Positions 1 to 57,219 of a stretch of 64,000 nt of DNA are shown piece after piece. The DNA lies in the sequence record MK817115.1; one strand, given 5' to 3'. The stretch comes from Escherichia phage vB_EcoM_phAPEC6. Position numbers and translations under genes: made by a program. The notes below the pieces were generated by a model. It ran no database searches and had not been told where the DNA came from. It was given only the letters and a program-made list of their open reading frames with translations. How positions within the stretch are numbered: the stretch's first letter is position 1; the number at the start of each line of letters is the position of its first letter.

Positions 1-2
1 TT

Positions 3-1145
3 ATGTTACCTTTTGCAAGAATGGTTAAGTACGGGAATATTGCACCTGCACAAATCGGTAGATATAAAATATACAGTTCATCTTCTTCACTATTTTTATT
101 GGATACCCAAAAACACAATTTGTACAGTACATCGAACATTAATTATACTAGTGGTACAGGTAATGTTGAGCCTAAATTTGTGTTAAGTGCAACTAATGTT
201 AAAAGATTATTACTATCTGATAATAGTTGTGCAATGCAAATATATGAAGATATGAATGGGCGTGCAGCGATGTGTGGCACAAGAACTGCATATAGTGGGG
301 TTGCAAATGATAATGTACTGGTATGGACGGATTGCACTACATGGTTCACAAATGTAGGGTTGAATGTATCAGATATTCAGTACATGTCTGGTTTTTATAA
401 TCTGAAACTAAACATAGTTATGAATAATGGTGATTTGTGGTGTAGTGGGAAAAACAACACTACTACTATGTCATCATTTGGTAATAGCACAAATATCGAT
501 TCATTCAATCAGTTTACCAAAATAACAACAATATCAAATGTTATTAAAGCCACCGGGAATATATACTTATGTGCAGATAATACTTTATGGGGATGTGGTT
601 TTAACTCTTACTATCAGTTAGGGACAGGTAATCAAACATCCAGTATTAATTTGATTATGATGGCTTCTAATGTTATCGACTGTAATGTTGGTCTTCAAAA
701 TACTTATTACTTGACTAATAATAAAGAACTTTATGGATGTGGTACACAATTTGGTACAACTTACGGGAATGAATTTGGAACAGGAAGGCAGGGAACATCA
801 ATACAATATAAGACTCCTACTATAATTTTCACAAATGCAGATGGTCTGGCTGTTTGTGTCGGTAATATGTCTACTCATGTTATTCAATATGATAAAGTTT
901 TTAGTTCTGGTAATAATGCCCTTGCACAGTTGGGTGTAGGCAACCGTGACAATGTGTACACATATACACAATCATTTGATAATTTCAAAATGGATTCTTC
1001 TATAGTACGTGCAAACGTTGGAACATTGATAATGACAGCGGACAATAAGTTATATTACAGTGGGAGAAATGATGTTGTTATGGGTGGAACAAGCACACAA
1101 TACACGACGGTTTTCAGTGAAGTTAATATGTCATTTATACAATGA
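3..1145 (+). CDS. Array member 1: RCC1-like beta-propeller repeat protein with conserved N-terminal leader MLPFARMVKYGN
   Basis: ATG at 3 followed by the shared leader; repeated GxNxxGQLGxG-type blades (LWGCGFNSYYQLGTGNQT, VFSSGNNALAQLGVGNRD); upstream cassette lies outside the window. Confidence 0.85.
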   Translation: MLPFARMVKYGNIAPAQIGRYKIYSSSSSLFLLDTQKHNLYSTSNINYTSGTGNVEPKFVLSATNVKRLLLSDNSCAMQIYEDMNGRAAMCGTRTAYSGVANDNVLVWTDCTTWFTNVGLNVSDIQYMSGFYNLKLNIVMNNGDLWCSGKNNTTTMSSFGNSTNIDSFNQFTKITTISNVIKATGNIYLCADNTLWGCGFNSYYQLGTGNQTSSINLIMMASNVIDCNVGLQNTYYLTNNKELYGCGTQFGTTYGNEFGTGRQGTSIQYKTPTIIFTNADGLAVCVGNMSTHVIQYDKVFSSGNNALAQLGVGNRDNVYTYTQSFDNFKMDSSIVRANVGTLIMTADNKLYYSGRNDVVMGGTSTQYTTVFSEVNMSFIQ

Positions 1146-1217
1146 ATTAATGCCAGTACTTGATACTGGCTTTTCTTTTTTGTATTAAATATAGTATAAT
1201 GAATAAAGGAGGGAATT
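1146..1217 (+). promoter_or_regulatory. Array cassette: terminator hairpin + promoter-like box + RBS
   Basis: Hairpin GCCAGTA-CTTGA-TACTGGC followed by a T-run; invariant GTATTAAATATAGTATAATGAATAA; AAGGAGGG 7-8 nt before ATG. Confidence 0.7.
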
Positions 1218-2360
1218 ATGTTACCTTTTGCAAGAATGGTTAAGTACGGAAATGAAGCACCAGAACCAAAACCTCTATTTAAAAATAGATTACAAGCAAA
1301 TTATAATACTCGTTTTTATTTGCATGTTAATGGTGACTTGTACTGGTATGGTTCATCTTCATTTGGACAAGGTGGTAATGGTTCATTACAATCATCCACC
1401 GTATGGACCCGTGTGAATAATAATATTGAACGTTACTGGGGTGGTGTTCTTGGTTCCATTGCCATTAAGAATGATGGAACTATTTGGTTCACAGGTGCTA
1501 GTATAGTAATGCCACAAATCGGAACAAATACAAATGGGGTTTGGATTGATGTAACCCAGTACTTCACTGATTTTGGTGTCAGTGCTGATGATATTGATGG
1601 TATTGCTGTTGGACAGAATTTGCGTGTATTTTTGAAAAATGGAAAATGGTTCTACTGTGGTGCTGGCGAGGGTGGTGTATTTGGTAACGCATCAACAGCT
1701 AATGTCACATCGTTCAGATACAGCACTATAGAAAATGTTAAAAGTTATGGCTGTTCTTTGCTCAGTACTGGGTTAGTTCTTGATGATGGTTCCTATTGGT
1801 ATGCAGGAAATACTGTTGCTCCTGGTAGTACAACAACATCAAATATATTAAGTTTTACAAAAGACAATACGATCACCAATGCTATACAAGCTGTAAATAC
1901 ATACCGTACTTCATATATATTTCTTAATGATGGTTCAGTGAAGGTTGCTTCACCAAATGCATATGGTCAAGCTGGTGTAGGTAGAGTATCAGCAGTACCA
2001 ATGAGTACATTAATTCCCAATTTATCATTCCAAGGTGAAATAGAGTTGGTGGGTGGTTTATCCAACAACGAAGGGAATGGATGTGTTGTTAAAAATAATA
2101 ATAAGTTATATACTTGTGGTCGAAATACCTATGGTGCATGTGGTGTTAATCAAACATCCGAAAATATACTAACTTTCACCGAAATGGTTCTTGATGCATT
2201 AGAAGGAAGACGAATTTCAGGCTTCGTAATTGATAATTTCTATTCAATGATAATTGATGAAAATAACAATTTGTATATGAGTGGTTTGGCTGAACTTGGA
2301 AATGTTCCAGCCGTGAGAGTTCCAACCAGAGTCCCCGATTCCCTTCTACCGTGGAAATAA
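1218..2360 (+). CDS. Array member 2: RCC1-like beta-propeller repeat protein with MLPFARMVKYGN leader
   Basis: Shared leader; blade motifs LYWYGSSSFGQGGNG, LYTCGRNTYGACGVN; own cassette upstream. Confidence 0.85.
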   Translation: MLPFARMVKYGNEAPEPKPLFKNRLQANYNTRFYLHVNGDLYWYGSSSFGQGGNGSLQSSTVWTRVNNNIERYWGGVLGSIAIKNDGTIWFTGASIVMPQIGTNTNGVWIDVTQYFTDFGVSADDIDGIAVGQNLRVFLKNGKWFYCGAGEGGVFGNASTANVTSFRYSTIENVKSYGCSLLSTGLVLDDGSYWYAGNTVAPGSTTTSNILSFTKDNTITNAIQAVNTYRTSYIFLNDGSVKVASPNAYGQAGVGRVSAVPMSTLIPNLSFQGEIELVGGLSNNEGNGCVVKNNNKLYTCGRNTYGACGVNQTSENILTFTEMVLDALEGRRISGFVIDNFYSMIIDENNNLYMSGLAELGNVPAVRVPTRVPDSLLPWK

Positions 2361-2433
2361 TGTAATATGCCAGTACTTGATGCTGGCTTTTCTTTTTTGT
2401 ATTAAATATAGTATAATGAATAAGGAGGGATTT
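2361..2433 (+). promoter_or_regulatory. Array cassette: terminator hairpin + promoter-like box + RBS
   Basis: Same hairpin, TATTAAATATAGTATAAT box and AAGGAGGG as other cassettes. Confidence 0.7.
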
Positions 2434-3543
2434 ATGTTACCTTTTGGAAGAATGGTTAAGTACGGAAATATTGTACCTGGTCCTAAAAATATAATTAAAG
2501 TTGGTGCTTCTACACAAGGTCAATTCTTATTGACTGATTCACATGATTTATATTACATAGGTAGAAATCAAGGTGGTGAATCTGGAAATGGTAATACCAA
2601 CACGGTATCTTCATGGATATTAGTAAGTGCAGATGTTTCTAATTTTTTCGTGGGTGATCGTACACTTGTTATTATTAAAAATGATAATACTATATGGACA
2701 TCAGGTCAAACGTACTGGTTCTCATCTTCTACGACTACTTCTTACAGTACTGTATTAGTTGAAAGGACTAATTGGTTTACTAATGCTATACCAGTCAGTG
2801 AAATTGCTAATATTGTATGTACAAATGGTTTAATATTTGTACTTAGCACTAATTCAGTACTCTATGGTGCAGGAGATAATGGATATCGTGGTTCTTTGGG
2901 TATTGGTTCATCATCAATTTATACATTAACTCAATGTGCTACGAACGTTCGTAAAGTAATGACCAATGCGAATGATAGTATGTATCTTACATTAGATAAT
3001 AAGCTATATAGTTCTGGATGGAATAGTAGTGGGCAGCATGGTACGGGGAACCAAACACAAATTAACACTTGGGGATTGCGTAGTTCTGGTGTAATCGATG
3101 CAGCCATTGGTGGTAATGCATTAAATTACTATAATGGTACATCATATTTCGTATGTGGTCAAACTCCAAACTTTCTTAGTTCAGGTACGACTACATTCCG
3201 TGCAGTTCCTGTAAGTACTTTGCCTAATAGTTCTCCGTTGTTTATGACGAATTCACCTGCATTAAATACTGCTACACAAATGGTAATTACTAGTACATAT
3301 CAAAAGGGTGTTGGGGCGAACCGTGGTTTGGGATTAAACAATTCTCAAACTGGTGCTATATATAGTGCTACCAATTTACAATTACCCGTTGAAGTTAGTG
3401 AGATTAGGGATGTTCTTTTTAGTGATGGTTTGACATCGATATTAACCAAAAATGGAGATGTGTATAGTACTGGATCGTATTACGCCATTCCAGGTGCAAT
3501 CGAGGATGTTGCAGTCTTTACTAAAATTGATTTACCAAAATAA
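2434..3543 (+). CDS. Array member 3: RCC1-like beta-propeller repeat protein with MLPFGRMVKYGN leader
   Basis: ORF-track start 2377 lies inside the cassette; ATG at 2434 is RBS-preceded and gives the shared leader; blades LYGAGDNGYRGSLGIG, LYSSGWNSSGQHGTGN. Confidence 0.85.
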   Translation: MLPFGRMVKYGNIVPGPKNIIKVGASTQGQFLLTDSHDLYYIGRNQGGESGNGNTNTVSSWILVSADVSNFFVGDRTLVIIKNDNTIWTSGQTYWFSSSTTTSYSTVLVERTNWFTNAIPVSEIANIVCTNGLIFVLSTNSVLYGAGDNGYRGSLGIGSSSIYTLTQCATNVRKVMTNANDSMYLTLDNKLYSSGWNSSGQHGTGNQTQINTWGLRSSGVIDAAIGGNALNYYNGTSYFVCGQTPNFLSSGTTTFRAVPVSTLPNSSPLFMTNSPALNTATQMVITSTYQKGVGANRGLGLNNSQTGAIYSATNLQLPVEVSEIRDVLFSDGLTSILTKNGDVYSTGSYYAIPGAIEDVAVFTKIDLPK

Positions 3544-3613
3544 CATAATGCCAGTGCTTGATACTAGCATTCTTATTTGTATTAAATATAGTATAATGAA
3601 TAAGGAGGGAAAT
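3544..3613 (+). promoter_or_regulatory. Array cassette: terminator hairpin + promoter-like box + RBS
   Basis: GCCAGTGCTTGATACTAGC hairpin, TATTAAATATAGTATAAT, AAGGAGGG. Confidence 0.7.
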
Positions 3614-4810
3614 ATGTTACCTTTTGGAAGAATGATTAAGTACGGGAATATTGCACCAGGGCCAAGTCCAGTGGCTTTCTCTGACGTTCTACAACAACAT
3701 TACACAAACTGTATGTATCTACATACACCAACTAATACTTTATATGGTTATGGTAATAATAATTTATGTCAATTAGGTGTTGGGAATCAATCTATAGTTT
3801 CGACATTTACAGTACTTGCAAGGGGTTGTGCAGCCTTTTGGCTCGGTGTTCATGGTTCATTGATGATTGATTTGGATAATAGAATATACTACACTGGTTC
3901 TGGTGCTGCCTTTCCTGATTATGGAGATGCAACACTTGTGAATGGTTTTATGACACAATGGACGGATGTTACTGTTGCATTTAATAAAATTGGTGTTATT
4001 GCTAATATGATCAAGAGTGTACATATAGGTGAGAGTACTAGAATATTATTAACCGATGGTAGAGTAATTGCGTGTGGAAAAAACACTTATGGTGAATGTG
4101 GTTCTGGGAACACAAATGCTATCCCTACACTAACAGTTATGACTGACATGGGTGAAGTTTCTCAACTCGCGTGTTCATTACAGGGTACACACTATCTCAA
4201 AACAAATAAAGACGCATGGTTTTGTGGTAAGGATAATGTTGGTGCAAGTGGTTGTGGTGCTGCTGGTGTTGTACATCTTAATAAACTCGTAACAAGTAAT
4301 GTCGAATATATTAGTGCTACATATGATATAACTTGGTGGTTTATTAGAGGTGGTTATGTATACTATAGTGGTTCTAACTCGTTTGCACAAGCGGGTAATG
4401 GTACATTTTCATCAACTAATCAGCTTAGGCCCACTAGAAACTTAGATCTTGCTTCAATTGTAGTTGATGATAATTTTGTATGTCCTAGTAATATGGGGAA
4501 TAGTTCAATTGGTACACCTATGGCAAAATATGATCCGAATATTAGAAGTGGTGGTGTTAACACATATGGTCAGGAAGGTACAGGAAATAATAATATAGTG
4601 ACGAAGTGGAATACCTTTAACATTAGTGCAATCACTGGAGGATTTGACAATATTCTTATGGCATCTAAAGACTGGTGTAGGACAATAATTATTACTAAAG
4701 ATTACAAAGTGTATGCGTGTGGAGGATTTAATGGTTCTGGTGGTATCTTACCAGATGGTACTTATGCTATTAAAACATTAACATTAATGCCAACACAACA
4801 ATGGCAATAA
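3614..4810 (+). CDS. Array member 4: RCC1-like beta-propeller repeat protein with MLPFGRMIKYGN leader
   Basis: ATG at 3614 after RBS; blades LYGYGNNNLCQLGVGN, VIACGKNTYGECGSGN; ORF-track start 3452 is an upstream extension through the cassette. Confidence 0.85.
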   Translation: MLPFGRMIKYGNIAPGPSPVAFSDVLQQHYTNCMYLHTPTNTLYGYGNNNLCQLGVGNQSIVSTFTVLARGCAAFWLGVHGSLMIDLDNRIYYTGSGAAFPDYGDATLVNGFMTQWTDVTVAFNKIGVIANMIKSVHIGESTRILLTDGRVIACGKNTYGECGSGNTNAIPTLTVMTDMGEVSQLACSLQGTHYLKTNKDAWFCGKDNVGASGCGAAGVVHLNKLVTSNVEYISATYDITWWFIRGGYVYYSGSNSFAQAGNGTFSSTNQLRPTRNLDLASIVVDDNFVCPSNMGNSSIGTPMAKYDPNIRSGGVNTYGQEGTGNNNIVTKWNTFNISAITGGFDNILMASKDWCRTIIITKDYKVYACGGFNGSGGILPDGTYAIKTLTLMPTQQWQ

Positions 4811-4822
4811 TAGGAGAAAATA

Positions 4823-5992
4823 ATGTTACCTTTTGGAAGAATGATTAAGTACGGAAATATTGCACCAACACCACCGAAATTTAAAAAAATACTCGCCAAT
4901 AACTACAACGTTGCAGTTTTAACAAGCAGTGGGGATTTATATGTACGTGGGAATAATCAAAACGGTCAATTGGGTTTAGGTCACAAAGAAACAGTTACTA
5001 CATGGACGATTAGCACTTCTGGTGTTCAAGATTTTTGGTTTGGTAGTTCATCACTAGTGGTTAAGAAAACCGATGATGAAATATGGTACAGTGGGCAGTC
5101 AACTACAATTGGTATGCCAGGGGCATCCGTGTCAGTGTGGACTTCTGCCATGCCGACATTCAATACATTAACATTACCAATATTAGATATGGCAGTTAGT
5201 AATCAGACTACAAGTGTATTACTATCTGACCGAACAATATGGAGTAGTGGGGTAGGAAGCAATGGTCAATTGGGTAATGGAACTGCGACGAACAACATTT
5301 CAGGTAAATTCGTCCAAAGTACTGTTTCAACAGAAGAAGATCAATTACCAGTTAAATTGTTTGCCAGTAATTTAATGCATGGATATGTTACGTCGAACGG
5401 CTGGTTATACTACACTGGGCAACCCAATGCAGTTAGCACTAATGGCAGTGCGATATATAGTGTTTATACTAGTGCTCCTATTAGTCTAAGGAATTCCATT
5501 AATATCAAGTACTATACAAATAATGGAACTTCGATGGCGATGGCTATTGGTACAGATCCAAATGGCAAGACCGTAATTGCTAATGGCGGCCCTAGGATAT
5601 TTGGTGCACAGGCTGATGGAGTAAATGGTCAACTAAGTAATGTTAGGTCATTTGCTGTTCAAACCGAATCACTAATGCCACCAGGTGATGTAGTAAGTAT
5701 TGCTCATAATACTTCATATTATAACCAAGTTATTGCTACAACAGATGGTATATATTGTTGCGGCTACAACCGATCTACACAAGCTGGTATGTTAGGCATT
5801 GGTACATCTACTAACGCATTAGTATATACCAAAGCAATCGTACCTGATGGTTTTGATTATAGTAAATCGCAAATGGTAGGTGGGTATAACCGTACTTATA
5901 TAACTGATGGTAATTTTGTATATAGTGCTGGGACAGATGTCACATATGGTGGCGTTAGTAGCTTAGAATTTGTATTAGATTCACCAGTTTAA
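4823..5992 (+). CDS. Array member 5: RCC1-like beta-propeller repeat protein with MLPFGRMIKYGN leader; directly coupled to member 4
   Basis: Only 12 nt (TAATAGGAGAAAATA) separate it from member 4, no cassette; blades LYVRGNNQNGQLGLGH, IWSSGVGSNGQLGNGT. Confidence 0.85.
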   Translation: MLPFGRMIKYGNIAPTPPKFKKILANNYNVAVLTSSGDLYVRGNNQNGQLGLGHKETVTTWTISTSGVQDFWFGSSSLVVKKTDDEIWYSGQSTTIGMPGASVSVWTSAMPTFNTLTLPILDMAVSNQTTSVLLSDRTIWSSGVGSNGQLGNGTATNNISGKFVQSTVSTEEDQLPVKLFASNLMHGYVTSNGWLYYTGQPNAVSTNGSAIYSVYTSAPISLRNSINIKYYTNNGTSMAMAIGTDPNGKTVIANGGPRIFGAQADGVNGQLSNVRSFAVQTESLMPPGDVVSIAHNTSYYNQVIATTDGIYCCGYNRSTQAGMLGIGTSTNALVYTKAIVPDGFDYSKSQMVGGYNRTYITDGNFVYSAGTDVTYGGVSSLEFVLDSPV

Positions 5993-6062
5993 ATATATGC
6001 CAGTACTTGATACTGGCATTCTTATTTGTATTAAATATAGTATAATGAATAAGGAGGGAATT
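5993..6062 (+). promoter_or_regulatory. Array cassette: terminator hairpin + promoter-like box + RBS
   Basis: GCCAGTACTTGATACTGGC hairpin, TATTAAATATAGTATAAT, AAGGAGGG. Confidence 0.7.
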
Positions 6063-7253
6063 ATGTTACCTTTTGCAAGAATGATGAATTATGGGAATAT
6101 TGTGCCTGTACCACTACAAATTAAGAAAATAATACCAACTGATACTGATGTTGTTGTACTTTATACTGATGGTCAACTATACGCACGAGGCAGTAATAGT
6201 TTTGGGAAGTTTGGTAGAGGAAATAATAATGCAGTAAGGTCGTGGACATTAATTAGAGAAAATGTCAAAGATTGCTGGATGACACAAGGAACTTTGTTAG
6301 TTCAAGATAAGGACTTAAATTATTTTTATTGTGGATATGGTAGTCATATTGGTTTAGAAACTAGTACTACATCATTTTTAAGTTATAACCAATATATTGA
6401 AAATTTGTACACACAAAGTTCAAGTACTTCAATTAAACAGATGTATGCAGGTACTACGTGGTTTACTTTCTTAATGGATAATAATACAATATGGAGTACA
6501 GGGTGGAATAGTGCTAGACAATTCGCAGATGGTACAGGAACTACTTATCAAATATCAGATGGTTCATTTGTTAAAGCGGTAACACCAGATGTAGATATTG
6601 CACAAATACAGTCAACAAATTACTGTGTAATGTTTTTTGATACACAAAATAATTTATATATTGGTGGTAGTACATCTGGCATAAGTACTAGTACCACATG
6701 GACACCATTTAATGAATATACTTTGTATAAGCCAAGTACCACATATACAAAAACATTACAATATACTGGTTGTTCAATTGGTGCTGTCAGTGCTTTAGTA
6801 GAGAATCCAAGTACAGGAGCACGTCAGTTCCTAGTAGGTGGTAACGCTAATAATGGGGCATGGGGTAATAACACTACGAATAGTACAGCACTAGCAGTAT
6901 TAGGGAATAATAGTACTACATTACCATCAGGAACTTATTATTCAATCCATACTGGATATGCAGCACAATCTAGTATACTAGTTACGAGTACAGGTGTATA
7001 TGCAACTGGTTTAAATGCGAGTGGTTATGCTGGTACATTAGGTGTTGGTTCTAATGTTACTATTGGTAGATTTACTATATGTCCAATGCCAGCAGAAATA
7101 TCATATTCTATGTATGATAAAATAAAAATATATCGCGGTTCGTATCGTACTTTTCTAACTGCTGATATGAAAAATATATATTCAACCGGAACGTATGATG
7201 ATGGTGGACCTAGTACAAATAGATATGTTCTGGATACACCTAGACAATTGTAA
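6063..7253 (+). CDS. Array member 6: RCC1-like beta-propeller repeat protein with MLPFARMMNYGN leader
   Basis: ATG at 6063 after RBS; blades LYARGSNSFGKFGRGN, VYATGLNASGYAGTLGVG. Confidence 0.8.
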   Translation: MLPFARMMNYGNIVPVPLQIKKIIPTDTDVVVLYTDGQLYARGSNSFGKFGRGNNNAVRSWTLIRENVKDCWMTQGTLLVQDKDLNYFYCGYGSHIGLETSTTSFLSYNQYIENLYTQSSSTSIKQMYAGTTWFTFLMDNNTIWSTGWNSARQFADGTGTTYQISDGSFVKAVTPDVDIAQIQSTNYCVMFFDTQNNLYIGGSTSGISTSTTWTPFNEYTLYKPSTTYTKTLQYTGCSIGAVSALVENPSTGARQFLVGGNANNGAWGNNTTNSTALAVLGNNSTTLPSGTYYSIHTGYAAQSSILVTSTGVYATGLNASGYAGTLGVGSNVTIGRFTICPMPAEISYSMYDKIKIYRGSYRTFLTADMKNIYSTGTYDDGGPSTNRYVLDTPRQL

Positions 7254-7324
7254 TAATTTCGCCAGTACAAAGTACTGGCTTTCTTATTTGTATTAAATAT
7301 AGTATAATGAATAAAGGAGGAAGT
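7254..7324 (+). promoter_or_regulatory. Array cassette: terminator hairpin + promoter-like box + RBS
   Basis: GCCAGTAC-AAA-GTACTGGC hairpin, TATTAAATATAGTATAAT, AAAGGAGG. Confidence 0.7.
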
Positions 7325-8059
7325 ATGTTACCTTTTGGAAGAATGGTAAAGTACGGGAATAAAATTGAATATAAGCCAGATGGTGAACAATTAATCACGA
7401 CAATAGGAACAACACAATTTACAGTTCCTGCTGGCGTTACCGAAATATCAGTATGTGTTATTTCGCCGGGTGGTCAACGTGGTGCTGGTGGCGGCTTATC
7501 GTGGCGTAATAATATTCCGGTTACTAGTGGTGAGTACTTAAGTGTTTCTCTTACACATCCCAACACTACTACAGCAGTTGAAAACGGTTTATATCGTGGA
7601 ACTGAAAAACTATGTGTTAGCTTCACTGGTGAATATAGGGTTGGTGGACTAGGTGGGAAAGCTGCTAACGCTATTAATGATGGTGGTGGTAATGGGGGCA
7701 ACGCTGGTGTAAGTGGTGGTGCAGTCATTGGTGGTGGTGCTGGTGGCTACACTGGTAAAGGTGGTAACGGAGATGCAATCACTGGTGAAAATGGTGCTGG
7801 CGGCGGCGGTGGTGGTGCATTCTATAATACCTCGTTCATTGGTACGGGTGGTGGTACTGGTATCATTGTTCAAGGTGCTAATGGTATTGGCGGTAGATAC
7901 GATGGTTCATATAATGGTGGTGCTGGTAGTGGTGGTGCTGGTAAGATGTATGGTGGTGGTGGTAGTATATGGGATAATTTTTCTTATACGGCTGCTGGTG
8001 GTGGTGCTGTGCGAATAATATGGGGACGTGGGAGATATTATCCTAACAATTCAGTCTAA
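7325..8059 (+). CDS. Array member 7: glycine-rich low-complexity protein carrying the same MLPFGRMVKYGN leader
   Basis: ATG at 7325 after RBS; leader identical to neighbours; body is Gly-rich (GGGAGGYTGKGGNGD, GAGGGGGGAF) with no RCC1 blades. Confidence 0.75.
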   Translation: MLPFGRMVKYGNKIEYKPDGEQLITTIGTTQFTVPAGVTEISVCVISPGGQRGAGGGLSWRNNIPVTSGEYLSVSLTHPNTTTAVENGLYRGTEKLCVSFTGEYRVGGLGGKAANAINDGGGNGGNAGVSGGAVIGGGAGGYTGKGGNGDAITGENGAGGGGGGAFYNTSFIGTGGGTGIIVQGANGIGGRYDGSYNGGAGSGGAGKMYGGGGSIWDNFSYTAAGGGAVRIIWGRGRYYPNNSV

Positions 8060-8131
8060 AATATAGGCCAGTACTTTGTACTGGCTTTCTTATTTGTATT
8101 AAATATAGTATAATGAATAAGGAGGGGAATT
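8060..8131 (+). promoter_or_regulatory. Array cassette: terminator hairpin + promoter-like box + RBS
   Basis: GCCAGTAC-TTT-GTACTGGC hairpin, TATTAAATATAGTATAAT, AAGGAGGG. Confidence 0.7.
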
Positions 8132-9283
8132 ATGTTACCTTTTGGAAGAATGGTTAAGTACGGGAATATTGCACCAGTTCCAGTAGTTCCTACAATAAAA
8201 GATTTTAAGATTGGCTTTTCACATGAAGTGTTATTGGACAGTGAAGGTGATGTGTGGGGTATTGGATATAATACCGCTGGTCAGTTGGGATTTCTGGACG
8301 CTAACACAAATTCAATAGGAATGTGGTCTAAGATACATGAGAATGTTAGATTAATTGGCGTTACTACCAATTATACTGTAGTTGTTACAAATGATAATAG
8401 AATACTTTACGCCGGAAATAACTTAATTTCTAGTACTACAACGCTTGGGTGGAACGATATAACGTCTAGTATGGGAGCGGTTGTAGTGGATAGCATCGAT
8501 GCATTATATTGCACAGATGGCATGATGCATATTAAAACTGCTGATGGTTCTTTATACGCATATGGACGTAATATGAACGCAAACGCTGGAGTTACTGGTG
8601 TTTCTGGAGTTATTAGTGTTGCAACTAAAGTTAGTGGTTTACCATCGGCTGTGAAAGATATACGATATACGTTTAGTTATGGTACAGTACTATGTCAATT
8701 AGATACCACCTCGGTATATGGATGGGGAAGAAATGTCAATGGTGAATTAGGTCAGGGGAACGCAGCCGCAGTTCCTACCCCATCCCAAAGGGCGGGTGCT
8801 TCTATTGCTATAGGTACTTCGTATAATGCTACTGCAATTGTTTCCGGTACTGCATCGTTGGTTACATGTGGTGGACAAAATGATGGTCAGTTAGGTAATG
8901 GTATTACTACTGCTGGTAATGTATACACATATGGTGCTAGAGCATACCCAAGCGATCTTAATAATATAAGAAGTCCAGTGGATTGCAGTACAACTTATAC
9001 ATCTGCATTTATGAGTCCAGATGGCATATATTACACGGGTTCGAACCGAAGTGTGTTTGGTGGTCCGAGCGGGGCTGCCACTGTTGCATTATATACCAAA
9101 TGTAGTGATTTACCAATATTATATTCTAATATAACACAGTGGTGTAGTGGTACTATTGGTGGTGCGATATGTAGCAGTACTGAATTATATCAGTGTGGGA
9201 CCGGTAGATACATTGCCGGAGATGGGCAGAACGCAACTAGGTATGGGTTTAGAAAGACACCATTACCTTGGGATGTTTATTGA
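8132..9283 (+). CDS. Array member 8: RCC1-like beta-propeller repeat protein with MLPFGRMVKYGN leader
   Basis: Blades VWGIGYNTAGQLGF, VYGWGRNVNGELGQGN, VTCGGQNDGQLGNG. Confidence 0.85.
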   Translation: MLPFGRMVKYGNIAPVPVVPTIKDFKIGFSHEVLLDSEGDVWGIGYNTAGQLGFLDANTNSIGMWSKIHENVRLIGVTTNYTVVVTNDNRILYAGNNLISSTTTLGWNDITSSMGAVVVDSIDALYCTDGMMHIKTADGSLYAYGRNMNANAGVTGVSGVISVATKVSGLPSAVKDIRYTFSYGTVLCQLDTTSVYGWGRNVNGELGQGNAAAVPTPSQRAGASIAIGTSYNATAIVSGTASLVTCGGQNDGQLGNGITTAGNVYTYGARAYPSDLNNIRSPVDCSTTYTSAFMSPDGIYYTGSNRSVFGGPSGAATVALYTKCSDLPILYSNITQWCSGTIGGAICSSTELYQCGTGRYIAGDGQNATRYGFRKTPLPWDVY

Positions 9284-9355
9284 CATAAAGCCAGTACTCA
9301 AGTACTGGCATTTCTTTTTGTATTAAATATAGTATAATGAATAAAGGAGGAATTT
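9284..9355 (+). promoter_or_regulatory. Array cassette: terminator hairpin + promoter-like box + RBS
   Basis: GCCAGTACTCAAGTACTGGC hairpin, TATTAAATATAGTATAAT, AAAGGAGG. Confidence 0.7.
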
Positions 9356-26395: not shown

Positions 26396-26815
26396 TCATT
26401 TACAGTTTTCTATAACTATTGCACGTTTTAGTATTTTACTTTCATAAACATACTTAAGATGACCTTCTTCACGAATACGATTGAACACATATCCTAGTTT
26501 ATCTTTTAGTACTGAAGCGGTATCAATGTCAAGATTAACTTCAACCCCTCCTGTTAATTTAACTTTATATGTAAAGCTAAAAGCATCACCAGATTCAACC
26601 AATGGGACTACTTGTTCATACGTATTCAACATAACTCGTTCATCATTAACTAAATTATATATTACTATATCACAAGTTTTTACCCCAATTTCCTCTAATG
26701 TAGGAGCATTATCTACTATAACATCTTTTACTGTATTTGCAACCTGTTTAGCATCTGCTGCATATACATTAAAACTAAAAAGTACTAAAATAATACTTAA
26801 AAAAATCTTTTTCAT
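26396..26815 (-). CDS. Secreted small protein (signal peptide)
   Basis: MKKIFLSIILVLFSFNVYAADA signal-peptide-like N-terminus; AAGGA RBS. Confidence 0.6.
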   Translation of the reverse strand: MKKIFLSIILVLFSFNVYAADAKQVANTVKDVIVDNAPTLEEIGVKTCDIVIYNLVNDERVMLNTYEQVVPLVESGDAFSFTYKVKLTGGVEVNLDIDTASVLKDKLGYVFNRIREEGHLKYVYESKILKRAIVIENCK

Positions 26816-26824
26816 TATATATCC

Positions 26825-27148
26825 TTATTTTATTTTACATGTCATATCGGGTTGTGCTGGTTTATTATTTTTAAACGGATTAGGTTTTTTATCTTTCTTT
26901 TTATCTTTTAAAGGTTTTTTGTCTTCTTTTTTATCTTTATCTTTGTCTTTTTTATTTTTATCAGGTTCAGAGGGAGTATTACATTGTGCTGGGGGTTGAT
27001 TAGTTGGAGTACAGCTATTGTCTGATGGGAGTATTACTTCTTTACAATTGTAAAATAGTAAACTTTTATTTGTGGTTAAATTATGAAAACGATAGTTACG
27101 TTCATTATTATAATAAATTGTTTTAGTACTTTCAATGTCATTGCACAT
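26825..27148 (-). CDS. Hypothetical protein with Lys/Asp-rich low-complexity tail
   Basis: KDKDKDKKEDKKPLKDKKKDKKP; weak RBS, start uncertain. Confidence 0.4.
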   Translation of the reverse strand: MCNDIESTKTIYYNNERNYRFHNLTTNKSLLFYNCKEVILPSDNSCTPTNQPPAQCNTPSEPDKNKKDKDKDKKEDKKPLKDKKKDKKPNPFKNNKPAQPDMTCKIK

Positions 27149-27158
27149 TACTACTGAA

Positions 27159-27410
27159 TCACCGGAACTCTTTTTCTATTCCCATTACATCAGTCTTATG
27201 CTCAGATAGTATACCTGAAGTATATGAATCTTTGTTGTCAAACACATTAAATCCAATAGTTCTGTCGGTGTCGTGTATTATTCCTTTTGTGTATGAGGTA
27301 GTATAGAACTCCCCATTTCTGAAATCCTGCCTTGCTACGGAGCAATGATAATCTGCACCATAAGCAGTACTGGAAAATAATACAATTCCAAATATAATAT
27401 ATTTTTTCAT
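27159..27410 (-). CDS. Secreted small protein (signal peptide)
   Basis: Start set to ATG 27410 (AGAGGG RBS): MKKYIIFGIVLFSSTAYGADY; the ORF-track extension runs into the promoter element. Confidence 0.55.
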   Translation of the reverse strand: MKKYIIFGIVLFSSTAYGADYHCSVARQDFRNGEFYTTSYTKGIIHDTDRTIGFNVFDNKDSYTSGILSEHKTDVMGIEKEFR

Positions 27411-27444
27411 TGTAATCCCTCTTCTTAATTCCTCTTTTGTATTT

Positions 27445-27474
27445 ACAAAAAAAGGCTGACCGAAGTCAACCTTT
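27445..27474 (-). promoter_or_regulatory. Composite terminator/early promoter element
   Basis: AAGGCTGACCGAAGTCAACCTT hairpin + T-run; TTGACT then GTAAATAC. Confidence 0.6.
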
Positions 27475-27481
27475 TGTTTTA

Positions 27482-28759
27482 TCATTTACCGTATTTGCTC
27501 ATGATGTCCTTTTCCCAAGGAGTTACATTTCCATTTTCGTAATCACGGAAAGAGTCATCAAGTGTAGTCAATGCATAATCATATGCCTCACCGGATTCAA
27601 CATCAATATCAACAGCACCATTCACTACATCAGTCCACGCTTTTTGTAGTTTACGAGCGTTGTTACCAACTTTATCTTTAATCCAACTAAGATTTCGGTT
27701 TATACTCTTCTTATCAGCACCAGCTTTTTCACCAACATCTGCAACCCATTGCATTAATTTCTGTAGTTCGTTATGGGATTTTTCAGTCATTTGGCGGTCT
27801 TGTGACAGTTCAGCTTCCATGTCATCAATTTCTTCGTCTGAATGAACATCGTTCTGTTCTACTGCACCTTCTTCATCATCACGCATCAGATAACCATCTC
27901 GTGTAACCTTCTCACCATGATCAGCTTCATACTTTTTCATAGTATTGAATGCAGCATCCATTGCAGTTACAAAACGACTCTTTTCACCTTGTACATAAGA
28001 TTTAAGTGCATCGTTAACTGCATCAGATACTAATTTAATCTTATCGTCTTTACCTTCCAGACGGTTTTCTAACTTAGCTAGTACATTCTTAACTTGTTGA
28101 GCATTAGCACGGTCTTCTTTACCAATACTATCAAATGTTTTAAGTACGCTTTCAAGACTTACTTCCTCTTGTGCAGGCACATCACCTTGTTGCGTACCTT
28201 CAAGTGCACGCATTATAGTACTGAATACTTCAGTTGGTTCAGTACTGGTATTTCCACTCATTGCATCAAGCACAGCTTGTGCTTTGACTTTTAATTCTTC
28301 TTTAGGTACAGATTGCAATTCTTTCACAATACCTTGGATAAGTTGTGGTTTATTAGCAAAAATCTTACCTAACTTATCAGACAGTTCTTTGACAGGGTTA
28401 ACCGCCTTTGGTGCTTCTTGTTTTGGTTCTTCTTTCGCAGGAGCAGACTTTTCTTTTTCTTCACGTTCCATATCAGCTAGACGTTGTTTTTGTGTAGCAT
28501 TAAGAAGTCCCAATGAATTAACATAACGTAGCTTTTCTAGCTCAGTCATGTTCTCAGTACTCTTAACTTCACCTGCTTCTGCGTTTGCTTTACCAGCTAG
28601 ACCAGTTCCTTGGTTACGTGACCCACGTGAACCTTGACCTGCTTGATAACTATTTGGACGGCGGTTGCGTTCACTCCATTTATCAGAGTGACCAGCCATG
28701 TTACCACCATTTTTATCAGTAAAATTACTTGGCATTTGATTTCTCTCCATAGATTTCAT
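27482..28759 (-). CDS. Lys/Glu-rich 425-aa protein, paralog of 29005..29388
   Basis: Shares YVNSLGLLNATQKQ and IVKELQSVPKEELKVKA blocks with the 127-aa neighbour; TATAAATA box ~16 nt upstream of ATG. Confidence 0.7.
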   Translation of the reverse strand: MKSMERNQMPSNFTDKNGGNMAGHSDKWSERNRRPNSYQAGQGSRGSRNQGTGLAGKANAEAGEVKSTENMTELEKLRYVNSLGLLNATQKQRLADMEREEKEKSAPAKEEPKQEAPKAVNPVKELSDKLGKIFANKPQLIQGIVKELQSVPKEELKVKAQAVLDAMSGNTSTEPTEVFSTIMRALEGTQQGDVPAQEEVSLESVLKTFDSIGKEDRANAQQVKNVLAKLENRLEGKDDKIKLVSDAVNDALKSYVQGEKSRFVTAMDAAFNTMKKYEADHGEKVTRDGYLMRDDEEGAVEQNDVHSDEEIDDMEAELSQDRQMTEKSHNELQKLMQWVADVGEKAGADKKSINRNLSWIKDKVGNNARKLQKAWTDVVNGAVDIDVESGEAYDYALTTLDDSFRDYENGNVTPWEKDIMSKYGK

Positions 28760-28777
28760 TTTTTCTCTATGTCTATA

Positions 28778-28816
28778 TTTATAGTATAAAGAAAAGGCTG
28801 ACCGAAGTCAACCTTA
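28778..28816 (-). promoter_or_regulatory. Composite terminator/promoter element (carries TATAAATA)
   Basis: GGCTGACCGAAGTCAACC hairpin; minus strand then reads TTTATACTATAAATATAG. Confidence 0.6.
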
Positions 28817-28821
28817 TTTTG

Positions 28822-28935
28822 TTACTTAGATTGTTCTTGTGCAGGTGGATTTACTTTTTGATCCACTACATAGAATACACCACCAACCAGTACTGCGGCG
28901 ATGAGTGCAGCAACTACAAATTTCAAACCTTGCAT
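28822..28935 (-). CDS. Small 38-aa membrane peptide (not in ORF track)
   Basis: ATG at 28935 after GAGG; MQGLKFVVAALIAAVLVGGVFYVVDQKVNPPAQEQSK; flanked by two composite elements. Confidence 0.45.
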   Translation of the reverse strand: MQGLKFVVAALIAAVLVGGVFYVVDQKVNPPAQEQSK

Positions 28936-28957
28936 ATATGATACCTCAGTTATATTG

Positions 28958-28992
28958 AGAAGTTATGATACAACAAAGGGCTGACCTTAGTC
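28958..28992 (-). promoter_or_regulatory. Composite terminator/early promoter element (variant)
   Basis: GGGCTGACCTTAGTCAACCCC hairpin + T-run; TTGACT then TATCAT. Confidence 0.6.
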
Positions 28993-29004
28993 AACCCCTT
29001 TTTA

Positions 29005-29388
29005 TTACTTCTTGAACTTATGTTTTTCACTTTCGATTGCATTCACGATTTCATCATGAATTTTACGAAGATTGTGAGTTTTCTTTAGAGATTCATGTAA
29101 TGCACGGAATGCAGAGTGTACAGTTGCTTTAAAGTGCTCTTTAGGAGTTACTTTAAGTTTCTCGATAATATCACGTACATAGATTGGGTGATCCTCAAAC
29201 ACACGATTAAGCTCATGACCTAGTGATTCTAGGCTAAATGCTTTTTCACGGGATGGACGATCATGTGCAAGACTTTGGTCTGGTTTTAGAAGACCTAGTG
29301 AATCTAGATACTTGTGCTTATGTGCATTGTCTAGACCAGAAATATCAACATCATGTGATGGATCTTTCTTATTCCATTTATCAACCAT
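29005..29388 (-). CDS. 127-aa protein, paralog of the 425-aa K/E-rich protein
   Basis: HKYLDSLGLLKPDQS and IIEKLKVTPKEHFKATV align with 27482..28759. Confidence 0.65.
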   Translation of the reverse strand: MVDKWNKKDPSHDVDISGLDNAHKHKYLDSLGLLKPDQSLAHDRPSREKAFSLESLGHELNRVFEDHPIYVRDIIEKLKVTPKEHFKATVHSAFRALHESLKKTHNLRKIHDEIVNAIESEKHKFKK

Positions 29389-29503
29389 TTTTATAACTCC
29401 TATAAGAGATAAATTTTACTATAATATTTATAGTTCCGTTGTCATTTATATCGAATGACATAAAACATTATATCATAATAAGAATGGTTGTCCCAAAGTT
29501 AAA

Positions 29504-29977: not shown

Positions 29978-30557
29978 TATTCATTAAACACAATTTAGGT
30001 TTTATAGCATTCAACACCCATATGCATTCTTTGTAAGTAGCTATTATATCATCTAAATGCTCAGTTACAATGCTTTCTTGAAAATATTCTTCATCATTGA
30101 GCTTTGCTAATTTAGTAACATCACACGTAGGCACTATAGGTCTGGATTGTACACCCATTCCATTATTGATATTAGTGAAATGTACAAAATGGTACTTCAC
30201 AACACCTTTATCTAGATTTATTATACATGACAAATTTTCCAACTCAGTTAGTTTTTTATTACAAGTAACATTAATGAAACCAGCATTATAGGCTCTATAA
30301 TCATCTACTGATATCTCAAAATCATTACGTTCAAATATAAGTGAAATGAGTTGGTCCAGTGGTTTGACATTCATATATTTTAATGAATTTACGTATGATA
30401 CTTCAATCTTAGATGAAATTATCTTTTTACTAAGTGCAGTTAATTCTTTGTTAGATTTAACTGTTAAAACAATATGTTTAAACCTAGAACTTTTGTTCTT
30501 TTTTGATACTTTAAAACGACCTTTACGATTCATAATTTCCTCAATTAATAATTTCAC
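29961..30557 (-). CDS. Hypothetical protein
   Basis: 198-aa ORF. Confidence 0.6.
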   Translation of the reverse strand: MKLLIEEIMNRKGRFKVSKKNKSSRFKHIVLTVKSNKELTALSKKIISSKIEVSYVNSLKYMNVKPLDQLISLIFERNDFEISVDDYRAYNAGFINVTCNKKLTELENLSCIINLDKGVVKYHFVHFTNINNGMGVQSRPIVPTCDVTKLAKLNDEEYFQESIVTEHLDDIIATYKECIWVLNAIKPKLCLMNIVRDL

Positions 30558-30762
30558 ATTTAACGTGTGGTTTATATAGCATAATTAACCCATTTTTAAG
30601 TACAATGATTGTTGCTCTGTTAGTAATCGAAACGTTTTTAATTATACTTTTTTTATATGTTTCAACATATTTCTCTTCATAATTTATACATTTAATATAT
30701 TCTTTTTGTTTAGCACTTACAACAGTACTGAATAATATCAGTACAAGTACTATATATTTCAT
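30541..30762 (-). CDS. Secreted small protein (signal peptide)
   Basis: MKYIVLVLILFSTVVSA N-terminus. Confidence 0.5.
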   Translation of the reverse strand: MKYIVLVLILFSTVVSAKQKEYIKCINYEEKYVETYKKSIIKNVSITNRATIIVLKNGLIMLYKPHVKCEIIN

Positions 30763-46349: not shown

Positions 46350-46465
46350 AAAAACACCTCATTATTCATTCACTACATGATAACACCAAATCATACACCA
46401 GTCAAGCTCATTTTTTGGATATGCATAATAAATACGTTATAATAATTATACCAATGGAGGGATAA

Positions 46466-47620
46466 ATGTCAAGGTCAATTGCTGCGGCTGGACACTATAA
46501 GTTTGGTGAATGTGGTTATGTTGTTGATGGTGCAATCCTCAACGATGGAACTAGACTAAAAAATATTAGAATCTATCGCCAAAGAAGCCATAGATTATAT
46601 GATTTAATTGATCCAAGAACTAATATAATATATCGTAAAGTACAAATAACAACTAAAGATAATAAAGGTTATCTATTAAATTACAATAAAACTAATGACC
46701 AACTATTAAGTGAAATTAATAAAAATTGTTTCTTTGTTCGTGGATATTCTGAAGAGCCACAAGAAACTGATACTGGATTTGTATATAAATTTATGCTACA
46801 TAAAACAATTTTAGGTAGTTCACAAACCTTGTATCATATGTATACACCTGAATGTGGTATTATAGATCGTGATATAGATAATATTCTCATTTCACCAGTA
46901 TTTGTTGGTAATGACTCAATTAGTGGTAAATTATTCAACACTGGTTCAGAAATTGATACTAACGGTATGGTAATAACAATCGTATTACCAGACGGGACAG
47001 AATACTTTACTACCCAATTTGTTAATGATGCATTTACAATTCCAGTTGATGTTATCACACAATCAGGGAAAGGTACTGCTACGCTCACTTCTCCATATTA
47101 TAACACTAAAGTGGTGGAATTTGATGTTCTTGAAAGTGGTGAGGATATTGATTTTGTTACATCAGTTCTTCTATCCCAATTTGAACCTGTTTCGGAAGGT
47201 GTATTTTCTGCGGTTGTTCCATTTGATGTTCATGATCGTGGACAGTACTTAGCACTTCAAGCATACAGTGGTGACTTATATCAAGTTGGTGTAGATCTTT
47301 CTGTAGACGCAGAAGGTAATATTACTGTGTATCAAACTGATAATTTACCTGTTTCTTTGAGTATAATCGGAAAAACACTGCATACTACTCCTTTCCATAA
47401 AGAATATACTTTAAGTGAGTGGGTTCTCGGTGAAGACTCTATGTACTCTATCTCAGTTCCAGTAACTGAACATGGTAAAGCACTACCACAAGTTCAATTA
47501 TATTCTTCAGACAATCATGTAGTTCATAGTGAAATACAAGTGGATGAAGATGATAATGTAATTCTTAAAGTAGTAGAACCGCTTGACTGCTCAGTCGTAA
47601 TAGTTGGTTACAACGCATAA
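46466..47620 (+). CDS. Hypothetical 384-aa protein; only plus-strand gene inside the minus block
   Basis: GGAGGGA RBS before ATG; upstream TAATAAATA / TTATAAT boxes resemble the array cassette promoter; bidirectional hairpin downstream. Confidence 0.7.
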   Translation: MSRSIAAAGHYKFGECGYVVDGAILNDGTRLKNIRIYRQRSHRLYDLIDPRTNIIYRKVQITTKDNKGYLLNYNKTNDQLLSEINKNCFFVRGYSEEPQETDTGFVYKFMLHKTILGSSQTLYHMYTPECGIIDRDIDNILISPVFVGNDSISGKLFNTGSEIDTNGMVITIVLPDGTEYFTTQFVNDAFTIPVDVITQSGKGTATLTSPYYNTKVVEFDVLESGEDIDFVTSVLLSQFEPVSEGVFSAVVPFDVHDRGQYLALQAYSGDLYQVGVDLSVDAEGNITVYQTDNLPVSLSIIGKTLHTTPFHKEYTLSEWVLGEDSMYSISVPVTEHGKALPQVQLYSSDNHVVHSEIQVDEDDNVILKVVEPLDCSVVIVGYNA

Positions 47621-47662: not shown

Positions 47663-48475
47663 TTATTTGAAATTGTCACGTAGAACTTCTTCAAGTGTTT
47701 TATCTGGATTGCTAATGGCTACATTATAAATCAATTCTTTAAATGCAGTTAGTGCCTGCTCAGTTGCTTCTGGACCAAAGTTCTCACTAATGCTTTTAAA
47801 CATACTTTGTGCACGTTCTGATTTGATACAACTAGTTACAAACTTGTCAATTTCATTACGAAGCTGCTTAGTTGTCATGTCACCAATGAGCATCTCACTA
47901 ATTTCTTTTGGTTCATCTGCACTTGTTCGGACATTCGTAAAACCAAACACATCATCACCTGAGCCAAAGCTACGTTTTTCTTTTTTAGTTTCTTTTACTG
48001 GTTCTTCTTCAACTTCTTGTTCGTATTCTTTAGTAAAGAGATGAGATAGTACATCATCAAGATTTTTAACCATACCATCAATACGAGATTCAGCATTCTT
48101 GGATACATGTTTGAATGCTTGCTCTAGTGCTTTTTCTTGAATCTGGTCACGAACATTATTAACTACATTACGAAGTTTTTCATTACAGTTGTCTAAAATT
48201 TCTAATACTTCACCAGTTTTGATTTTTTCCAAAAGTACATCTAAATCAGATTTTACATTTTGTTTTTGACTTACTTCACCATTAAGAATTGAATTCAATT
48301 CTTTAGCACCTTCAACTGCTTCTTCATGTGTTTTAAATTCAACTGGTACATCAACACCATCCAGTACAATATTAAGCACTTTACCATCAACGTAGGCGTA
48401 GGAGTAAGATGCTTTTTTGAAAGAAATAGTTTTGAAGAAAATGTTGCTCATATTGATATACTCCTTAGTGCCCAC
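47663..48475 (-). CDS. Hypothetical acidic protein
   Basis: 270-aa ORF, charged and likely helical. Confidence 0.6.
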   Translation of the reverse strand: MGTKEYINMSNIFFKTISFKKASYSYAYVDGKVLNIVLDGVDVPVEFKTHEEAVEGAKELNSILNGEVSQKQNVKSDLDVLLEKIKTGEVLEILDNCNEKLRNVVNNVRDQIQEKALEQAFKHVSKNAESRIDGMVKNLDDVLSHLFTKEYEQEVEEEPVKETKKEKRSFGSGDDVFGFTNVRTSADEPKEISEMLIGDMTTKQLRNEIDKFVTSCIKSERAQSMFKSISENFGPEATEQALTAFKELIYNVAISNPDKTLEEVLRDNFK

Positions 48476-53041: not shown

Positions 53042-53142
<101 letters not shown>

Positions 53143-56878: not shown

Positions 56879-57214
<336 letters not shown>

Positions 57215-57219
57215 TCTTA

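Follow-up and report, generated by a model that had tools for sequence, protein, structure and literature searches.

Why should the genes for two related proteins, headed by late-type promoter motifs, enclose a tiny membrane-peptide gene in the early part of a jumbo phage genome? The locus that raises this question occupies positions 27,482 to 29,388 of a 64,000-nucleotide stretch of DNA (hereafter the window) from Escherichia phage vB_EcoM_phAPEC6 (MK817115.1). It lies in the early, hyperplastic genome part of an Asteriusvirus, a member of the 'Rak2-like' jumbo myoviruses of ~350 kb that make up the 121Q/PBECO4/phAPEC6 group. The 2.5 kb around the locus are 99.4–99.6% identical to Escherichia phages BAU.Micro_ELP-22, E9.1, JP4 and SP27, and ~91% identical to 121Q and PBECO4. 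An initial annotation, made from the letters of the sequence, had described a lysine- and glutamate-rich (K/E-rich) protein pair around a hydrophobic peptide gene; all three of its open reading frames (ORFs) are confirmed, and the genes of the region all lie on the minus strand. We consider it likely that the locus unites paralogous virion proteins with late promoters, insulation of each gene by repeats resembling the promoter-early stem-loops (PeSLs) of T4-like phages, and an early peptide cassette that can be exchanged between those repeats.

The two proteins are true paralogs. Pairwise comparison bears out the earlier claim that they share sequence blocks: by BLASTP, the small and large products are 24% identical across 119 amino acids (aa) at E=4e-8, and the large protein matches the small protein's family, phrog_16530, at E=5.8e-38 over residues 9–188. 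The large protein also matches phrog_20398 (E=6.1e-180), while the small protein matches phrog_16530 at E=3.6e-56. Both are direct members of these families of virion structural proteins, to which 121Q gp201 and gp199, K64-1 gp344, GAP32 gp032 and CBB gp038 also belong. An alignment of 23 sequences extends the homology across the whole 127 aa of the small protein, with 10 invariant columns that include K24, Y27, L31-G32 (the YxxxLGLL block), P45, L60, F64, P68, I74 and L78. The main difference is the absence from the small protein of a 33-residue basic, glycine-rich segment (NRRxNSxxAGQGSRGSRNQGTGxxGKAN). AlphaFold2 (AF2) predicts a fold of 4–5 helices for the small paralog (pLDDT 69.5), corresponding to the first bundle of the large protein plus the LGLL helix. 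In the model of the 417-aa large protein (pLDDT 72.9), residues 1–60 are disordered and three helical bundles (114–179, 194–273 and 300–414) are joined by disordered acidic linkers.

Two details of the earlier description need adjustment. The K/E enrichment is real but moderate, at 20.7% and 22.0% against 13.3 ± 4.8% in 67 neighbouring ORFs. The large protein had been given as 425 aa, which is the length of the ORF; its true start is most likely M9 (ATG 28735, with the ribosome-binding site (RBS) GGAGAG), yielding 417 aa, because the K64-1 ortholog opens with MPGQFTD right after its RBS, the upstream ATG in EJP2 is out of frame, and the mass of the 417-aa form fits the published 46.39 kDa.

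Both paralogs are present in virions, as supported by a match to published data. The electrospray tandem mass-spectrometry (ESI-MS/MS) proteome of phAPEC6 virions includes gp035c (46.39 kDa, 8 peptides, 28.8% coverage) and gp037c (14.83 kDa, 5 peptides, 48% coverage) (PMC7247149). We tied the ORFs to this table via computed mass and gene order. The masses computed for the 417-aa and 127-aa products, 46.39 and 14.83 kDa, equal the listed values exactly, assigning gp035c to the large paralog and gp037c to the small one. Between them, gp036 is unlisted in the table and corresponds to the peptide gene. phAPEC6 is 99.77% identical to SP27 (PMC7247149), and the SP27 protein is identical to that of the window. 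Further, the original entries for phage UB, ph0011 and Salmonella phage 7t3 label the orthologs as structural proteins, as does RefSeq for K64-1, GAP32, CBB and fHe-Yen9-04. Virion proteomics had been named as a way to check the initial annotation; it is published for phAPEC6 and annotated for 121Q, and it places both proteins in the particle. The label 'chromosome segregation protein' that gp035c carries in phAPEC6 was unsupported by any search, and is probably an artefact of coiled-coil or low-complexity sequence.

Each paralog is preceded by an exact copy of TATAAATA, the octamer core of T4-type late promoters. The initial annotation had reported this core before the large gene and considered it unlike the neighbouring genes; the core is indeed there, but its uniqueness does not hold, since the small paralog has its own copy and the contrast with the neighbours applies to the pair. 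These are the only 2 copies in the window, one per paralog, against 14.4 ± 3.5 expected, a depletion of ~7-fold. The 7-mer core ATAAATA is likewise scarce (7 observed against 45 ± 7 expected). Our motif survey sampled ~145 kb altogether, and the same pattern recurs in 121Q. Between 1 and 50 kb of that genome there are 9 ATAAATA sites against 32.6 expected, and 7 of the 9 sit 25–50 nucleotides (nt) ahead of a start codon. Among these 7, five precede annotated virion genes (gp5, 18, 24, 45 and 54), and one more precedes gp49, at the head of the gp50-51 virion genes. The morphogenesis module of 121Q served as a positive control. Here 13 of 14 ATAAATA sites are promoter-positioned; the exact TATAAATA stands before the major capsid (gp603), scaffold (gp602) and baseplate hub (gp596) genes, as well as before virion protein gp590 and endonuclease VII, and ATAAATA variants stand before the prohead protease, tail fibre, gp597 and gp618.

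Comparison among relatives points the same way. Both TATAAATA sites are kept in 121Q, G17, ph0011 and fEgEco12 while the flanking bases vary, and the site of the large gene is also kept in EJP2 and in K64-1, a phage of another genus. For CBB and GAP32, ATAAATA has been predicted as a motif before structural genes, together with a gp55-like sigma factor, CBB_244 being described as gp55-like (PMC5259590). In the morphogenesis module of 121Q, gp591 carries the annotation 'sigma factor for late transcription', which is a matter of annotation only. We accept the late-promoter reading because of the motif depletion, the capsid, scaffold and hub control, the conservation and the literature prediction; that TATAAATA is the late promoter of this phage is a well-supported inference. 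The equation of TATAAATA with the T4 late-promoter core, first made in the initial annotation, is thus upheld by the depletion, by the virion genes downstream and by the 121Q control.

In sequence, the motif resembles the late promoters of T4. As in T4, the octamer is identical, requires no -35 element and lies ~35–50 nt upstream of capsid, scaffold and baseplate starts in the lineage; a gp55-like sigma is among the annotated genes, and the remainder of the early region shows counter-selection against the motif. Unlike in T4, the variants nATAAATA and TATTAAATATAG are also used. T4 late promoters depend on gp55, gp33 and gp45, whereas CBB yielded no homologs of gp33 or gp45 (PMC5259590).

Two of the 7 ATAAATA sites in the window precede the paralogs, 2 precede tRNA genes and 1 lies at 46428 (+). 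This last site precedes a lone plus-strand ORF of 384 aa (46428–47620) amid the minus-strand early region. The mass of its product (42.88 kDa) equals that of phAPEC6 virion protein gp077, and the adjoining 262-aa ORF (47663–48451, minus strand; 29.73 kDa) fits virion protein gp078c. Of the tRNA-associated sites, both on the minus strand, one (53095–53101) lies 72 nt upstream of tRNA-Thr and the other (57209–57215) lies 17 nt upstream of tRNA-Gly, suggesting that part of the 7-gene tRNA cluster may be transcribed from late promoters.

The paralogs probably have tandem early and late promoters. At the small gene, the early-type -10 region, TGATATAAT, stands ~35 nt before TATAAATA and is conserved in 121Q, G17, ph0011 and fEgEco12; at the large gene, the candidate early promoter overlaps the late one (Table 1). 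The late-versus-early contrast posed by the initial annotation is probably better put as 'early plus late', because both genes also keep sigma-70-type promoters. We found no transcriptomics or promoter mapping in the papers on Sharanji, fEgEco12, RaK2 and 121Q, and the literature that we searched yielded no transcriptome of Asteriusvirus or Rak2-like coliphages.

Table 1. Genes and predicted regulatory elements of the paralog locus (positions refer to the window).
Feature	Positions	Strand	121Q counterpart (annotation)	Details
Large paralog	27482–28735	-	gp201 (virion structural protein)	417 aa from M9; 46.39 kDa; pI 5.06; ORF reaches 28759
Small paralog	29005–29388	-	gp199 (virion structural protein)	127 aa; 14.83 kDa; pI 9.05; phAPEC6 gp037c by mass and gene order
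Mini-gene, predicted single-pass membrane peptide	28822–28935	-	gp200 (hypothetical)	37 aa; RBS GAGGT
Putative T4-type late promoter core, large gene	28776–28783	-		exact octamer TATAAATA, 40 nt upstream of ATG 28735
Putative T4-type late promoter core, small gene	29425–29432	-		exact octamer TATAAATA, 36 nt upstream of ATG 29388
Sigma-70-like promoter, small paralog	29467–29496	-		TTGGGA, 18 nt, TATAAT, extended-10 TG; consensus scan 10/12
PeSL-like element 1	28965–29000	-		hairpin GGGGTTGACTAAGGTCAGCCCC (28979–28996), embedded TTGACT, 18 nt, TATCAT; scan 10/12
PeSL-like element 2, hybrid	28776–28815	-		hairpin GGTTGACTTCGGTCAGCC (28796–28813), TTGACT, 17 nt, TATACT, overlapping TATAAATA
PeSL-like element 3	27454–27471	-		hairpin after large gene; degenerate -10 TAAATA before next gene

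The peptide gene between the paralogs had been described as bracketed by two hairpin/promoter elements. The elements are there, with predicted RNA folding energies of -18.3 kcal/mol (z -4.6) for the hairpin of element 1 and -12.4 kcal/mol (z -4.0) for that of element 2, but they are copies of a widespread repeat rather than features specific to this locus, where all three copies are variants of it. The sequence GGTTGACTTCGGTCAGCC occurs 8 times in the window against 0.01 expected, always in sense orientation and between small genes of unknown function. It comprises a GGTTGAC/GTCAGCC stem with a UUCG loop and flanking A and T runs, and a -35 box, TTGACT, is contained within the 5' arm of the hairpin. 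In half of the copies (4 of 8), TATAAT with an extended-10 TG follows at 17–18 nt downstream, and a fifth copy has TATGAT with the same TG. Each repeat would therefore represent, on its motifs, an intrinsic terminator fused to the sigma-70 early promoter of the downstream gene. Element 1 would combine the terminator of the small gene with the promoter of the peptide gene, whose -10 (TATCAT) is weaker; its counterpart in fEgEco12 has a perfect TATAAT, preceded by TGTCG and without the canonical TGn spacing. Element 2 would act as the terminator of the mini-gene and as a hybrid early/late promoter for the large gene, and its arrangement of hairpin plus TATAAATA is kept upstream of the large-gene orthologs in ph0011, fEgEco12, EJP2 and K64-1. 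Element 3 (-15.2 kcal/mol, z -4.8) follows the large gene. The GenBank record of G17 annotates these hairpins as terminators, including the site equivalent to element 3. No such hairpin stands upstream of the small paralog.

By its motifs, this repeat has the architecture of a PeSL. In T4-like phages, such elements sit on either side of ORFans and bring about the shuffling of modules (Arbiol et al. 2010, PMC2839356; Comeau et al. 2014, PMC4122927). Here as there, a sigma-70-like early promoter and a terminator stem-loop overlapping its -35 form a repeated intergenic unit, concentrated among the small ORFans of a plastic early region. Further, a cassette of a single ORFan in one phage is matched by a single element in a relative: the 121Q type and ph0011 here, RB49 ORFan192 and phi1 there (PMC2839356). 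The systems differ in that known PeSLs belong to Tevenvirinae and this repeat to a Rak2-like jumbo phage; in that the stem here, GGTTGAC-UUCG-GTCAGCC, is far more uniform than the G-tract/C-tract stems there; and in that one copy here is fused to a late promoter.

Other hairpins were seen in association with promoter motifs. A small one (TGTCATT..AATGACA) lies at 29433–29466 on the minus strand, between the early-type -10 of the small paralog and its late TATAAATA, and might form a 5' stem in the early transcript. In fEgEco12 the arms are different (GTCTGT..ACAGC), a change that may be compensatory. The short orthologs in GAP32 (L006 2380–2500) and CBB (L012 680–800), the latter sited within a 22-kb terminal repeat, are preceded by TTGACA, 18 nt and TATAAT. 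In this promoter a CCCCTAA..TTAGGGG hairpin begins in the spacer and encloses the -10 box, and would constitute another PeSL sub-type. Finally, the plus strand of window positions 1–14189 carries 7 copies of a second composite element, a hairpin GCCAGTAC..TACTGGC followed by TATTAAATATAGTATAAT. The hairpins lie at 1152, 5999, 7261, 8067, 9290, 10575 and 12954, 5 of the 7 being directly upstream of an annotated start. The same interval holds ~11 paralogous genes of ~250–450 aa, six of which match the phAPEC6 virion 'DNA condensation' proteins gp003-010 by mass. This element appears to be the late-type equivalent of the early repeat of hairpin and promoter.

The peptide ORF is a real gene under purifying selection. 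Its product, 37 aa rather than the 38 first given, matches phrog_35037 at E=2e-29 and reaches a 19-aa Kyte-Doolittle maximum of 2.75 at residues 6–24. By tblastn it was detected in 19 records only, all of the 121Q subgroup, of which 18 are 100% identical and one is 97.3% identical. A divergent homolog in fEgEco12 shares 23 of 37 aa at 62% nt identity. It is this copy that establishes the gene, because it keeps the 37 codons, the transmembrane (TM) helix and the polar tail, with dS saturated and dN/dS ~0.2. A predicted promoter, an RBS, the ORF and a predicted terminator are all present, so the self-contained unit originally proposed stands by its anatomy. By context, we take the peptide to be a small inner-membrane protein made early, as signal-peptide or membrane proteins are encoded by many of the neighbouring genes.

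Comparison of relatives shows that this unit is a cassette. Between the paralogs, ph0011 has one hairpin and no gene; the window, 121Q and G17 have a hairpin, the 37-aa gene and a second hairpin; and fEgEco12 has a hairpin, the divergent 37-aa gene, an 87-aa multi-TM protein, a 98-aa signal-peptide protein and a final hairpin. In all three states (0, 1 and 3 genes) the cassette junctions coincide with the hairpin repeats. ph0011 also lacks homologs of gp202-204 beyond the downstream hairpin. In EJP2, K64-1 and GAP32, neither the small paralog nor the peptide gene was found near the large gene.

Together, these features suggest how the locus might operate. The early region would be partitioned by the repeat AAAGGTTGAC-UUCG-GTCAGCCTTTT followed by TATAAT, in which the hairpin would be an intrinsic terminator and its 5' arm would supply the -35 (TTGACT) of the next gene's sigma-70 promoter. 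Embedded in this array would be two genes for paralogous minor virion proteins. Because the hairpins would insulate each unit, each paralog would carry its own T4-type late promoter, with TATAAATA read by the gp55-like late sigma of the phage. Each would also keep an early-type promoter, so that the proteins would be made or boosted late and then incorporated into particles. The 37-aa gene would be an early-promoter cassette between two copies of the repeat, encoding a small inner-membrane peptide and being gained or lost via recombination between repeats.

The large paralog is itself highly variable among relatives. An exhaustive profile search of 1.84 billion representatives returned only 35 clusters (E<=1e-3), all apparently of the same family, and tblastn confines the family to Rak2-like jumbo phages infecting enterobacteria and a single Xanthomonas phage. 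The apparent ancestral form has ~160–180 aa, as in GAP32 gp032 and CBB gp038 (~172 aa), and consists of a disordered basic N-terminus rich in Gly, Arg, Asn and Gln, an EKLKYFxSLGLL block, a Pro/Glu/Lys linker and a 4-helix bundle. In the large paralog, a conserved N-terminal part of ~180 aa (N) is followed by helical C-terminal modules (B to G) that are shuffled among relatives. GAP32 and CBB have N only. Short metagenomic forms (P0067, P0068) have N-B, while P0071 has N-C, P0066 has N-G and P0049 has N-G-E. The window protein is N-B-E, whereas G17-type and longer metagenomic forms (P0038, P0019) are N-B-D-E and JNE01 is N-C-B-D-E. K64-1 has N-F-C-E', and several metagenomic forms each have N-C-B-E' or N-C-F-E'. 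In some alleles (P0022, P0038), the N-terminal 60 residues are 34% identical to those of the window protein and the remainder is 100% identical, and we therefore infer recombination inside the large gene.

Four Salmonella-phage records (SD-2_S15, L010 1560–2150; SD-15_S21, L011 1900–2447; SD-1_S14; and SD-6_S16) are near-identical to the window but have the large gene cut to ~150–196 aa, with the N-terminal domain kept. These genomes, at 310–326 kb, are 25–60 kb shorter than their relatives, and the truncation may be either a real deletion of C-terminal modules or an assembly collapse. Given the possibility of collapse, we set these records aside as evidence that the modules are dispensable.

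Several observations weigh against the joint account. Promoter activity, expression timing and terminator activity are read from motifs, and recombination of the cassette from genome comparison only. The ORF matching virion protein gp078c has no upstream ATAAATA, and the virion genes of the window's RCC1-like array also lack it and use TATTAAATATAG instead. Orthologs in GAP32 and CBB are headed by a consensus sigma-70 promoter (TTGACA/TATAAT), with no exact ATAAATA. At the locus itself both TATAAATA sites overlap possible sigma-70 readings: a match of ATGACA, 16 nt and TATAGT spans the site of the small gene, and in EJP2 the octamer falls exactly at the -10 position. On this evidence one could argue that the TATAAATA sites are merely parts of sigma-70 promoters or of an AT-rich leader, and that both paralogs belong to the ordinary early genes, their abundant products being carried along when particles are purified. 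Plausible sigma-70 promoters do exist at both genes, and mass spectrometry of phAPEC6 also recovered the non-structural SSB, RecA and thymidylate synthase (PMC7247149). We nevertheless regard this explanation as very unlikely. An octamer so strongly depleted in the window has been kept at both genes in all relatives examined as its flanks drift, and it marks the genes for capsid, scaffold and hub in 121Q. In the window, 22 nt separate TTGACT from TATAAATA, a distance too long for sigma-70. Further, the published virion mass spectrometry, matched to the ORFs by mass and gene order, and the 'structural protein' labels on orthologs (121Q, phage UB, ph0011 and 7t3, with K64-1, CBB and GAP32 in RefSeq) argue for genuine virion proteins. 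Slimmer still is the chance that the 37-aa ORF is not a gene at all and that the interval is a spacer between two terminators. The ORF is very short, the near-perfect identity of the 19 records means that close relatives give no test, and virion mass spectrometry did not report the peptide, although it would not be expected there. However, constraint on the divergent fEgEco12 copy, together with an RBS, an own promoter and an own PHROG family, speaks clearly for a gene.

Accepting the joint account, where in the particle might the paralogs reside? The 4-helix bundle and the YxxxLGLL block common to both probably form a virion-incorporation domain. Searches for fold and family gave no match that indicates a function for either paralog, which again counts against our account: Pfam returned nothing above threshold for the window proteins and 10 long variants, a PDB sequence search returned no match for either protein or its modules, Foldseek against PDB found nothing better than E~1 for either AF2 model, and Foldseek against BFVD found family members only. 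One proposal is that they are external parts, such as a capsid decoration, a fibre anchor or a 'hair', whose surface-exposed, variable C-terminal modules diversify under pressure from host interaction. The particles of phAPEC6, 121Q and CBB do bear unassigned hairy fibres and decoration proteins on capsid and tail (PMC5259590), and the large protein, with its beads-on-a-string form, flexible acidic linkers and hypervariable C-terminal modules, would suit such a place. Yet CBB and GAP32 are conspicuously hairy while their ortholog is the ~172-aa N-terminal domain without extension; the predicted fold is entirely alpha-helical and shows nothing resembling a fibre or a beta-rich receptor-binding part; the number of peptides does not point to the ~1620 copies that a capsid decoration protein should have; and the gene sits in the early region, outside the morphogenesis modules. 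We therefore doubt an external position, and tentatively favour the possibility that the paralogs are head-internal or ejected cargo, akin to the internal proteins of T4. This preference, no more than a guess, is based on the genomic location, on the design of conserved N-terminus and variable C-terminus that recalls the capsid-targeting-sequence (CTS) proteins of T4, and on the inner body seen in 121Q and phAPEC6, whose proteins are unassigned.

The T4 parallel is one of analogy, not membership. Like IPI, IPII, IPIII and Alt, the paralogs are virion proteins whose genes lie in a hypervariable region rather than in the morphogenesis modules (PMC3012670), and like the T4 internal proteins they join a conserved N-terminal part to a highly diverse rest and occur as paralogs. 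Unlike those proteins, they show no similarity in sequence or fold, their conserved part is ~180 aa rather than ~10 aa, and there is no conserved L/I-x-E site. Indeed, the family alignments contain neither a conserved prohead-protease site of this type nor a T4-like capsid-targeting motif, a further point against our account; the best cleavage candidate, V-K-E117, is not invariant, and the small paralog, although in virions, lacks most of the N-terminal 50 residues. We speculate, as a rather improbable extension, that the large-paralog family may be a polymorphic effector system delivered by the virion, in which the ~180-aa N domain would load the head (possibly the inner body) and the C-terminal modules (B, C, D, E, F and G) would be injected anti-defence cargo. 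In that event, recombination shuffling PeSL-like units might drive the exchange of both modules and cassettes, making the system a counterpart of the T4 CTS system whose targeting domain is unrelated and far larger.

By itself the locus is unremarkable, in that virion labels, T4-like late motifs in the clade and terminator-promoter cassettes are all already known. As far as we found, PeSL-type shuffling in a Rak2-like jumbo phage lineage is apparently undescribed; besides unrelated uses of the acronym, the literature on 'PeSL' concerned only T4-like phages, a cyanophage and haloarchaeal viruses. The same appears to be true, within what we found, of the way in which modules are combined in the large paralog, which is a strikingly mosaic protein of the virion. 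PeSL-type modular shuffling appears to operate in a separate jumbo phage lineage, for which this locus gives a clear allelic series of 0, 1 and 3 genes. The exact TATAAATA, being strongly counter-selected in the early region, represents a clean predictor of virion or late genes among the hundreds of ORFans in Rak2-like phages. Should the large paralog prove to be injected cargo, its modules would become candidates for anti-defence effectors, and its N-terminal domain might serve as a tag with which to package foreign proteins.

The genes adjoining the locus appear to form an envelope-directed early cluster, as their predicted signal peptides suggest. On the minus strand, a 108-aa ORF (27159–27485) overlaps the stop of the large gene, and a terminator hairpin falls within its first 25 codons. 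The gene here is probably the 83-aa form that starts at ATG 27410, like 121Q gp202, because the PHROG match begins at residue 26 and the short form opens with a signal peptide. Signal peptides also open the neighbouring ORFs at 26396–26815 and 30541–30762. A 107-aa ORF at 26825–27148 (minus strand) contains a low-complexity tract of lysine and aspartate, KNKKDKDKDKKEDKKPLKDKKKDKKPNPFKNNKP, and its K+E content of 25% is the highest in the region.

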